Positions 23,865 to 24,334 of a stretch of 64,000 bases of DNA are shown piece after piece (within the stretch, counting starts at the first letter, position 1; every line of letters begins with the position of its first letter). The position numbers were made by a program, and so were the translations under genes. The notes below the pieces were generated by a model, which was given only the letters and a program-made list of their open reading frames with translations, made no database searches and was not told where the DNA came from. The DNA comes from Actinomycetota bacterium (GTDB taxonomy: Bacteria > Actinomycetota > Actinomycetes > Actinomycetales > Microbacteriaceae). The stretch covers positions 209,596 to 273,595 of the forward strand of contig JBNJKL010000004.1 in NCBI GenBank assembly GCA_051751065.1, in the 5' to 3' direction.

Positions 23865-23987
23865 TCAGGTCGCGATGGCGGCGACACCGCCGGCGATCGC
23901 CACCCAGTAGCCGACGTGCTCCCACCACTCCAGCGGAGCGTCGAGAGCATCGAGCTCCTCGTAACGGAGCTGGACATCGGTGTGCAT
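23865..23987 (-). CDS. mpaA: Daptide-type RiPP precursor peptide, 40 aa, C-terminal Thr
   Basis: Hand translation: MHTDVQLRYEELDALDAPLEWWEHVGYWVAIAGGVAAIAT-stop. AGGAGG RBS 6 nt upstream. It is below the ORF-track size cut-off. Confidence 0.85.
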   Translation of the reverse strand: MHTDVQLRYEELDALDAPLEWWEHVGYWVAIAGGVAAIAT

Positions 23988-24023
23988 ACGGCACCTCCTC
24001 TCGTTCACTTCGACTCCTCCGTG

Positions 24024-24161
24024 TCAGGTGACGACGAAGGCGATGACGCCTGCTGCGACGCCGATGTTGAAGCCTCGGATCCAGTCCGTGGCATCATCGG
24101 GGGCGTCCATCGGCTCCAGCTCCGTGAACACCAGGTGGGGTGTCGTGGTCGTTGCGTTCAT
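24024..24161 (-). CDS. mpaA: Daptide-type RiPP precursor peptide, 45 aa, C-terminal Thr
   Basis: MNATTTTPHLVFTELEPMDAPDDATDWIRGFNIGVAAGVIAFVVT-stop. GAGGAGG RBS. It forms the C-terminal tail of the spurious 155-aa track ORF 24024-24491. Confidence 0.85.
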   Translation of the reverse strand: MNATTTTPHLVFTELEPMDAPDDATDWIRGFNIGVAAGVIAFVVT

Positions 24162-24199
24162 ATCTCTCACCTCCTCTTCAGTCGTGGTCAGGGCCGTGG

Positions 24200-24334
24200 T
24201 CACGTCGCGATGACCGCGACGCCGACGACACCGAGGCCCGCCAACATGCCCTGGTAGAAGCTCTCCCAGCTGGGCGCGTCCAGCGCGTCGAGCTCCTCGA
24301 AACGGAGCGACGTGGCGTTCGCACATGCATTCAT
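24200..24334 (-). CDS. mpaA: Daptide-type RiPP precursor peptide, 44 aa, C-terminal Thr
   Basis: MNACANATSLRFEELDALDAPSWESFYQGMLAGLGVVGVAVIAT-stop. The RBS GAGGGGG lies inside the last codons of the upstream dehydrogenase gene. Not in the ORF track. Confidence 0.85.
   Translation of the reverse strand: MNACANATSLRFEELDALDAPSWESFYQGMLAGLGVVGVAVIAT

Follow-up and report, generated by a model that had tools for sequence, protein, structure and literature searches.

Three tandem precursor genes of a very probable mpa-type daptide cluster in a Microbacteriaceae contig

The precursor genes

The 64,000-nucleotide stretch considered here, which we call the window (GenBank assembly GCA_051751065.1, contig JBNJKL010000004.1, positions 209,596 to 273,595; Microbacteriaceae), carries three small open reading frames (ORFs) in tandem on its minus strand, which an earlier reading of the bare sequence, referred to below as the original prediction, had proposed to encode precursors of a peptide made on the ribosome and then post-translationally modified (RiPP). 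We regard these ORFs as very probably the orthologues of mpaA1, mpaA2 and mpaA3, the precursor genes of an mpa-type daptide cluster in a Microbacterium species. It was on the cluster of M. paraoxydans DSM 15019, with its three precursors MpaA1–A3, that Ren et al. (Nat Commun 2023) defined the daptides (PMC10036551).

Reading the minus strand between 23800 and 24420, together with the ORF listing, reproduced the three proposed peptides exactly, each ending in Thr followed by TGA, with the coordinates and the lengths of 44, 45 and 40 aa as originally given. The first, A1 (P1; MpaA1 family), spans 24200–24334 with its ATG at 24334 and encodes MNACANATSLRFEELDALDAPSWESFYQGMLAGLGVVGVAVIAT, which divides into a leader, MNACANATSLRFEELDALDAP (24334–24272), and a core, SWESFYQGMLAGLGVVGVAVIAT (24271–24203), before the TGA stop. 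The second, A2 (P2; MpaA2 family), spans 24024–24161 with its ATG at 24161 and encodes MNATTTTPHLVFTELEPMDAPDDATDWIRGFNIGVAAGVIAFVVT, with the leader MNATTTTPHLVFTELEPMDAP (24161–24099) and the core DDATDWIRGFNIGVAAGVIAFVVT (24098–24027), again followed by TGA. The third, A3 (P3; MpaA3 family), spans 23865–23987 with its ATG at 23987 and encodes MHTDVQLRYEELDALDAPLEWWEHVGYWVAIAGGVAAIAT, with the leader MHTDVQLRYEELDALDAP (23987–23934), the core LEWWEHVGYWVAIAGGVAAIAT (23933–23868) and the stop TGA; an alternative in-frame GTG start would give this peptide 47 aa. Shine-Dalgarno motifs lie upstream of all three, as claimed, at 9 nt 5′ of the ATG for P1 (GGAGAGGGGG), 8 nt for P2 (GAGGAGG) and 6 nt for P3 (AGGAGG); the claimed spacing of 5–8 nt thus fails for P1. 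Codon usage in the precursors is coding-like and equal to that of the flanking genes, with GC content at third codon positions (GC3) of 0.87, 0.83 and 0.83 for A1, A2 and A3 and at second positions of 0.44–0.49.

The three small ORFs are real genes. Would a routine gene caller miss them, as had been supposed? P2 is indeed masked, forming the C-terminal part of a 155-aa ORF at 24024–24491. The supposition itself did not survive: automatic calls of 44, 45 and 40 aa are present in an independent Logan assembly, the three exact sequences are in a public protein collection with NCBI among its sources, and the NCBI annotation pipeline holds dedicated equivalog models for such peptides. Against these NCBIfam models, P1 scores 68.9 bits on NF041805 (MpaA1 family daptide-type RiPP), P2 scores 63.0 bits on NF041806 (MpaA2 family) and P3 scores 74.3 bits on NF041807 (MpaA3 family), each with a cutoff of 40 and with E-values of 1e-17 to 5e-21. 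Together with the NCBIfam matches of the neighboring enzymes described below, these matches identify the locus as an mpa-type daptide biosynthetic gene cluster.

Conservation and selection

A contig scan with a single MpaB-like protein found no relative; a reference-genome scan with an alignment of seven MpaB-like proteins yielded 40 loci (L001–L040), of which 37 are from Microbacterium (including two M. paraoxydans strains) and the others from a Lysinibacter metagenome-assembled genome, a Microbacteriaceae bacterium and an Arthrobacter. The position of the precursors in the middle of the operon had been called unusual; it is instead the norm for this clade, since tblastn with the window proteins recovered the gene order B-D-C-precursors-M-P-T1-T2 in 40 of 40 loci. 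Across the daptide class as a whole, gene order is little conserved (PMC10036551). A profile hidden Markov model (HMM) built from the orthologous precursor peptides and searched in six frames of all loci and of the window matched only P1, P2 and P3 in the window, and the 39 complete loci gave exactly three precursors apiece. Thr stands directly before the stop in all 121 HMM-detected precursors from 41 sources. Loss of the terminal Thr and of the DAP block from syntenic clusters, which the original prediction had named as evidence against itself, was not what we found, and its picture of tandem RiPP precursors, in which a leader precedes a hydrophobic core of small residues and the terminal Thr is essential, is supported.

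The block L-x-[FY]-x-E-L-x-x-x-D-A-P that had been seen to be shared by the three peptides turns out to be the leader motif of the family. Aligned in register, 112 orthologues follow [LI]-x-[FY]-x-E-L-[DE]-x-[MIL]-[DE]-[AT]-[P/L], where E(−8) and L(−7) never vary, F or Y stands at −10, M, I or L at −4, and D or E at −3; the window leaders read ELDALDAP in P1 and P3 and ELEPMDAP in P2. The further suggestion that ELxxxDAP is a recognition or cleavage determinant agrees with published work: the motif is read by the RiPP recognition element (RRE) of MpaB, processing is lost with the substitution L(−7)A or M(−4)A, and the leader is cleaved C-terminal to Pro (PMC10036551).

Position −1 varies in one of the families. 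Among the MpaA2-family leaders of L001–L037 it is Leu in 17 of 37 (…MEAL|NDTDDY…; for example, L001 11589–11753), Gln in two more and Met in one, and the window P2 retains Pro, as do all A3 peptides and 35 of 38 A1 peptides. A residue other than Pro at −1 in many A2 peptides would imply either a protease with no strict need for Pro at P1 or a shifted cleavage site in those precursors.

A closer relative of the window is provided by L041, a Logan assembly contig from run SRR31968184 that is 95% identical to it over 5.5 kb. Between the two, the precursors differ at 4 of 396 nt and the remaining sequence at 273 of 5123 nt (Fisher p = 1.3e-5); three of the four precursor differences are synonymous, the other replaces V with M in the leader of A2, and A1 is identical. 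In every complete gene more of the changes are synonymous than non-synonymous, with the precursors the most conserved part and the protease the most divergent gene (54 non-synonymous among 127 differences). When compared with distant orthologues, all three precursor families give a ratio of non-synonymous to synonymous divergence (pN/pS) of 0.42–0.46, which understates the constraint because pS is near saturation. Purifying selection on the precursors is, by these sequence comparisons, evident.

Such data bear on one alternative, namely that the ORFs are chance open frames or encode unmodified small membrane peptides with no relation to the neighboring enzymes. At 69% GC, the DNA is of a kind in which spurious ORFs are abundant, 22 being listed for a 1.2-kb stretch, and the cores do resemble transmembrane helices. 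The HMM E-values, the purifying selection, the orthologues in 40 loci, whose terminal Thr never varies, and the isolation and structural characterisation of the orthologous M. paraoxydans peptides (PMC10036551) together make this alternative vanishingly improbable. The conservation data refute chance ORFs, and we have rejected these along with unmodified membrane peptides and a non-daptide RiPP class.

The surrounding operon

The genes that flank the precursors of the daptide cluster all lie on the minus strand. Farthest upstream is the mpaB-like gene (26778–27821), which encodes a DUF-RRE accessory protein, or daptide biosynthesis RiPP recognition protein, with a longest ORF of 347 aa and an uncertain start; exact look-up of the 347-aa product found no gene on record, and thus the annotated start may differ. 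This protein scores 245 bits on the equivalog model NF041823 (daptide_RRE; cutoff 150) and has no Pfam match. Its homologues are all from Microbacterium and bear the NCBI name 'daptide biosynthesis RiPP recognition protein', the nearest being 54% identical. Next comes the mpaD-like gene (25528–26781; 417 aa) for a pyridoxal phosphate (PLP)-dependent class-III aminotransferase, with 530 bits on NF041821 (daptide_amino; cutoff 450) and a match to PF00202 at 2e-58. The mpaC-like gene (24341–25531; 396 aa), immediately before A1, encodes a dehydrogenase of the Fe-ADH family and a predicted oxidative decarboxylase of the C-terminal Thr; it matches PF00465 at 1e-18, and the gene is syntenic in 40 of 40 loci at 35–54% identity.

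Downstream of the precursors, the mpaM-like gene (22989–23807; 272 aa; start at ATG 23807, taken from the Logan gene call, with GAGGAGG upstream) encodes an S-adenosylmethionine (SAM)-dependent N-methyltransferase that scores 253 bits on NF041820 (daptide_MTase; cutoff 175) and also matches Pfam Methyltransf_25. The mpaP-like gene (21304–22992; 562 aa) encodes an intramembrane M50/HExxH metalloprotease, the predicted leader peptidase, with 368.6 bits on NF041824 (daptide_HExxH; cutoff 300), an HEVAH motif and several hydrophobic stretches. The transporter genes follow: T1 (20588–21319; 243 aa; boundaries from the Logan gene call) is an ATP-binding cassette (ABC) transporter ATP-binding subunit (Pfam ABC_tran, 2e-29) with 58–71% identity to the other loci; T2 (19863–20591; 242 aa) is a membrane protein and, by synteny and its hydrophobic stretches, a probable ABC-2-type permease, with a faint signal only for Pfam ABC2_membrane_3; and T3 (19132–19866; 244 aa) is a membrane protein with multiple hydrophobic stretches, probably a second permease, that is conserved 3′ of T2 in 35 loci at 33–41% identity.

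Some features of the region stand somewhat apart from this gene list. Residues ~394–562 of the mpaP-like protein (21304–21810) extend ~170 residues past the 379-position NF041824 model and have no Pfam match; the extension is conserved, as tblastn alignments to orthologues reach about residue 555. Relaxed Pfam scans found nothing in the C-terminal 168 residues of the protease or in T3. A same-strand gene for a LuxR/GerE-type regulator (18315–19070) follows directly 3′ of the transporter genes, past the point where the retrieved loci end, and beyond it the region 17150–18200 has a strong periodic GC pattern, reaching 0.98 at one codon position, where none of the three long ORFs tested has high GC3 in its own frame. 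Scans of 18000–28200 for sigma-70 promoter and intrinsic-terminator consensus sequences found nothing relevant, and no Rfam family was detected anywhere in the window.

On its other side the cluster adjoins argG (28009–29514, plus strand), which encodes argininosuccinate synthase, is transcribed divergently from the cluster and lies beside the cluster in the window and in no other locus. ArgG is 91–94% identical to that of many named Microbacterium species and 93% identical to that of strain UFMG61; the daptide proteins are only ~44–68% identical to those of L021, the cluster of the same strain. Judging from these sequences, the cluster would be either fast-evolving or mobile within the genus.

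The operon lying between the LuxR gene and argG thus consists of B, D, C, A1–3, M, P and T1–3, with no YcaO, Lan, glycosyltransferase or nucleotidyltransferase gene. This matters for the possibility that the locus makes a RiPP by other chemistry, or belongs to a daptide subclass that adds further tailoring, for example a YcaO-made imidazoline or D-Ala introduced by LanKC/LanJC. Such genes are found in daptide clusters elsewhere (PMC10036551; bioRxiv 2025.07.11.664356), and yet here the absence of any such gene from the operon is joined by cores that have no Cys and few Ser, making this possibility very improbable.

Structural prediction for the MpaB-like protein

AlphaFold2 modeled the MpaB-like protein with a predicted local distance difference test score (pLDDT) of 85.3 and a predicted TM-score (pTM) of 0.83. 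The C-terminal domain, residues 259–326, is predicted with pLDDT >90 as three strands followed by three helices, and the only coherent PDB matches returned by Foldseek for the model are RRE proteins, namely TbiB1, a lasso B1 protein and PqqD, with a probability of 0.84–0.97, a target TM-score of 0.60–0.66 and a root-mean-square deviation of ~3 Å. Residues 1–250 are also confidently modeled, mostly with pLDDT >85, and found no credible match among solved structures; in the model, this N-terminal domain, the partner of the oxidative decarboxylase, is a structural orphan.

Proposed pathway and products

What would such an operon make? The steps that we propose are taken from the characterised M. 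paraoxydans and Thermobifida fusca systems and applied to the window by orthology. Translation would yield a leader with L-x-[FY]-x-E-L-[DE]-x-[LM]-D-A-P and a 22–24-residue hydrophobic, helical core ending in Thr. The C-terminal RRE of the MpaB-like protein would bind the leader, with Leu(−7) and the hydrophobic residue at −4 as its main contacts, and the C-terminal Thr would be presented to the MpaC-like enzyme of the Fe-ADH type, which is expected to carry out its oxidative decarboxylation to an aminoacetone ketone with NAD(P)+. The PLP aminotransferase would then convert the ketone to a primary amine, and the SAM methyltransferase would dimethylate this amine to give (S)-N2,N2-dimethyl-1,2-propanediamine (Dmp). 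Lastly, the RRE-fused intramembrane M50 protease would cut off the leader behind the Pro of DAP, and export of the products would fall to the ABC transporter.

Much of this sequence of events has been worked out in the relatives. For example, the decarboxylation that MpaC carries out on the C-terminal Thr needs MpaB, and deletion of the RRE abolishes the reaction; MpaC has a strict selectivity for a C-terminal Thr and is tolerant of core length and sequence; and MpaD transaminates the ketone, after which MpaM dimethylates the amine to Dmp (PMC10036551). In vitro work with the T. fusca enzymes has confirmed the order of the steps, the dependence on NAD+ and the independence from metal (bioRxiv 10.1101/2025.07.11.664356).

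The pathway would yield SWESFYQGMLAGLGVVGVAVIA-Dmp, DDATDWIRGFNIGVAAGVIAFVV-Dmp and LEWWEHVGYWVAIAGGVAAIA-Dmp, three helical peptides predicted to carry a positive charge at both ends; cleavage after Pro and conversion of Thr to Dmp give them calculated [M+H]+ values of 2338.26, 2490.35 and 2382.28. The same rules applied to L033 (M. paraoxydans GM09) give [M+H]+ values of 2363.31, 2232.27 and 2339.29, which equal the published m/z of 2363, 2232 and 2339 for daptides 1–3 (PMC10036551), and thus the cleavage and Dmp rules were applied correctly. The M. paraoxydans daptides are helical and haemolytic, with synergy between the peptides (PMC10036551), and a staphylococcal daptide forms membrane channels or pores (PMC12749797); the three predicted products of the window probably act together on membranes.

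Weight of the evidence

Several observations weigh against the daptide assignment, and we collect them here. The mpaC-like protein scores 284.3 bits on NF041822 (daptide_DH), just under the cutoff of 300, and the model leaves the first ~55 residues of the protein unaligned; an M. paraoxydans MpaC orthologue scores 342.7 bits. The mpaC-like protein clearly belongs to the family without formally attaining equivalog status, and the low score with the unaligned N-terminus means that the daptide name may be missed by automatic annotation. The cluster proteins share only 42–64% identity with their closest relatives, the enzymes 42–65% with those of the other Microbacterium loci, and the window peptides only 50–53% with MpaA1–3. 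Relaxed Pfam scans of the MpaB-like protein and of the protease N-terminus gave no signal for an RRE or for PqqD, and the Foldseek E-values of the RRE matches are weak (0.09–0.4), which follows from the small size of the domain. A search of those portions of the Ren et al. supplementary files that could be searched found neither the window peptides nor the string ELDALDAP, from which we do not conclude that they are absent from the 483-cluster dataset. Lastly, production, modification and activity at the window locus are things that we infer by orthology.

Could this, then, be a daptide locus that looks intact and yet is drifting or does not produce, its peptides translated and left without Dmp because, for example, a divergent MpaC-like enzyme has lost or changed its activity? 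The dehydrogenase score and its unaligned N-terminus would fit such a scenario, as would cluster proteins (42–64%) that are far more divergent than ArgG. Drift is harder to reconcile with genes that are all full-length ORFs with coding-like GC3, with the excess of synonymous over non-synonymous changes relative to L041 in every complete gene and the still stronger conservation of the precursors, and with an intact terminal Thr, an intact leader motif and an Fe-ADH domain that is clearly present. We consider this scenario improbable, although less so than the alternatives of extra tailoring or chance ORFs, and we retain the assignment of the locus to a daptide cluster of the mpa type.

A hairpin after the last precursor gene

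A GC-rich hairpin (23827–23862, minus strand) with a perfect 16-bp stem and a 4-nt loop separates the A3 stop from the start of the methyltransferase gene. Its minimum free energy is −36.4 kcal/mol (z = −4.65), and it has no U-tract; lacking a T-run, it was not flagged by the intrinsic-terminator consensus scan. A hairpin occupies the same position in 39 of 39 complete syntenic loci, with stem sequences that differ between lineages and in most cases no U-tract, and the changes within it in L041 are compatible with the structure. The median folding free energy of the 70 nt 3′ of the stop is −35.1 after A3 and −14.2 and −16.1 after A1 and A2, respectively. The words 'hairpin' and 'stem-loop' are absent from the founding daptide paper (Ren et al. 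2023, PMC10036551).

We describe the element as a putative stem-loop that either stabilises the mRNA or acts as a leaky terminator. Probably it is the device that RiPP operons commonly use to obtain an excess of precursor transcript, as in lantibiotic operons such as nisA-nisB. Our tentative suggestion, for which the odds are somewhat less than even, is that the hairpin may be an attenuator or RNA stabiliser that sets a high precursor-to-enzyme ratio, and that the cores may differ in activity spectrum from the haemolytic, non-antibacterial daptides of M. paraoxydans.

Significance

The daptide class, its chemistry, the recognition of the leader, the cleavage site and curated HMMs for the three peptide families have all been known from 2023 onward. 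The cluster is orthologous to the mpa daptide cluster and is itself uncharacterised, and the original prediction was a correct observation that already had its explanation. The main new element is the set of three uncharacterised core sequences, ~50% identical to MpaA1–3; the conserved hairpin is a minor one. The practical value is modest, consisting of three new daptide cores for membrane and antimicrobial testing and one more divergent enzyme set for the toolbox of C-terminal editing. The locus also serves as a calibration case, in which a reader with nothing more than the DNA letters rebuilt the precursor logic of a RiPP correctly, overestimated its novelty and missed a class that had been described.

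Comparison with known systems

The closest characterised system is the mpa cluster of M. paraoxydans DSM 15019 (PMC10036551), which is alike in genus, gene set, A1/A2/A3 families, leader motif, Pro cleavage site and terminal Thr; it also has counterparts of the window's predicted Fe-ADH-type decarboxylase and its DUF-RRE partner, of the aminotransferase and methyltransferase, and of the RRE-M50 protease; the gene order of the window is that of the M. paraoxydans loci L028 and L033. The differences are ones of degree and place. Whereas the window peptides are 56–64% identical to their best orthologues, their identity to MpaA1–3 is lower, as given above; the window has Leu at leader position −4 where the mpa peptides have Met in A1 and Ile in A3; and the core lengths are 23, 24 and 22 residues, compared with 24, 22 and 22 in MpaA1–3. 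The window enzymes are 44–65% identical to the mpa enzymes, and the chromosomal location differs, with argG adjacent in the window only. None of these differences from the type cluster touches a defining daptide feature.

The TfDap and SaDap systems of T. fusca and Streptomyces azureus (bioRxiv 10.1101/2025.07.11.664356) share the treatment of the C-terminal Thr, with decarboxylation by DapB/C, transamination by DapD and methylation by DapM, and their DapC and the MpaC-like enzyme of the window belong to the same family, PF00465. In these systems a YcaO enzyme also forms an imidazoline at the C-terminus, whereas the window operon has no YcaO gene. Hominicin, a daptide bacteriocin that Staphylococcus hominis encodes on a plasmid (PMC12749797), and other daptides of Bacillota likewise have a Dmp C-terminus, which is predicted for the window, together with a hydrophobic helix and two amino termini, and membrane-active pore formation is their mode of action (PMC12749797). 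Their clusters differ from the window, which is of the actinobacterial Fe-ADH type, in using an oxidoreductase of family PF13561 and a shorter protease (PMC10036551), and they carry a dedicated immunity gene, homI.

At the level of protein fold, the lasso RREs (TbiB1, PDB 5v1u/5v1v; lasso B1, 6jx3) and PqqD have the same leader-binding winged-helix fold of three strands and three helices that is predicted for the C-terminal domain of the MpaB-like protein. Unlike these, the MpaB-like RRE has no detectable sequence similarity to them and is fused to a domain of ~250 residues, and whereas the RREs of lasso systems and PqqD serve a protease or a cyclase, that of the MpaB-like protein would serve an oxidative decarboxylase.

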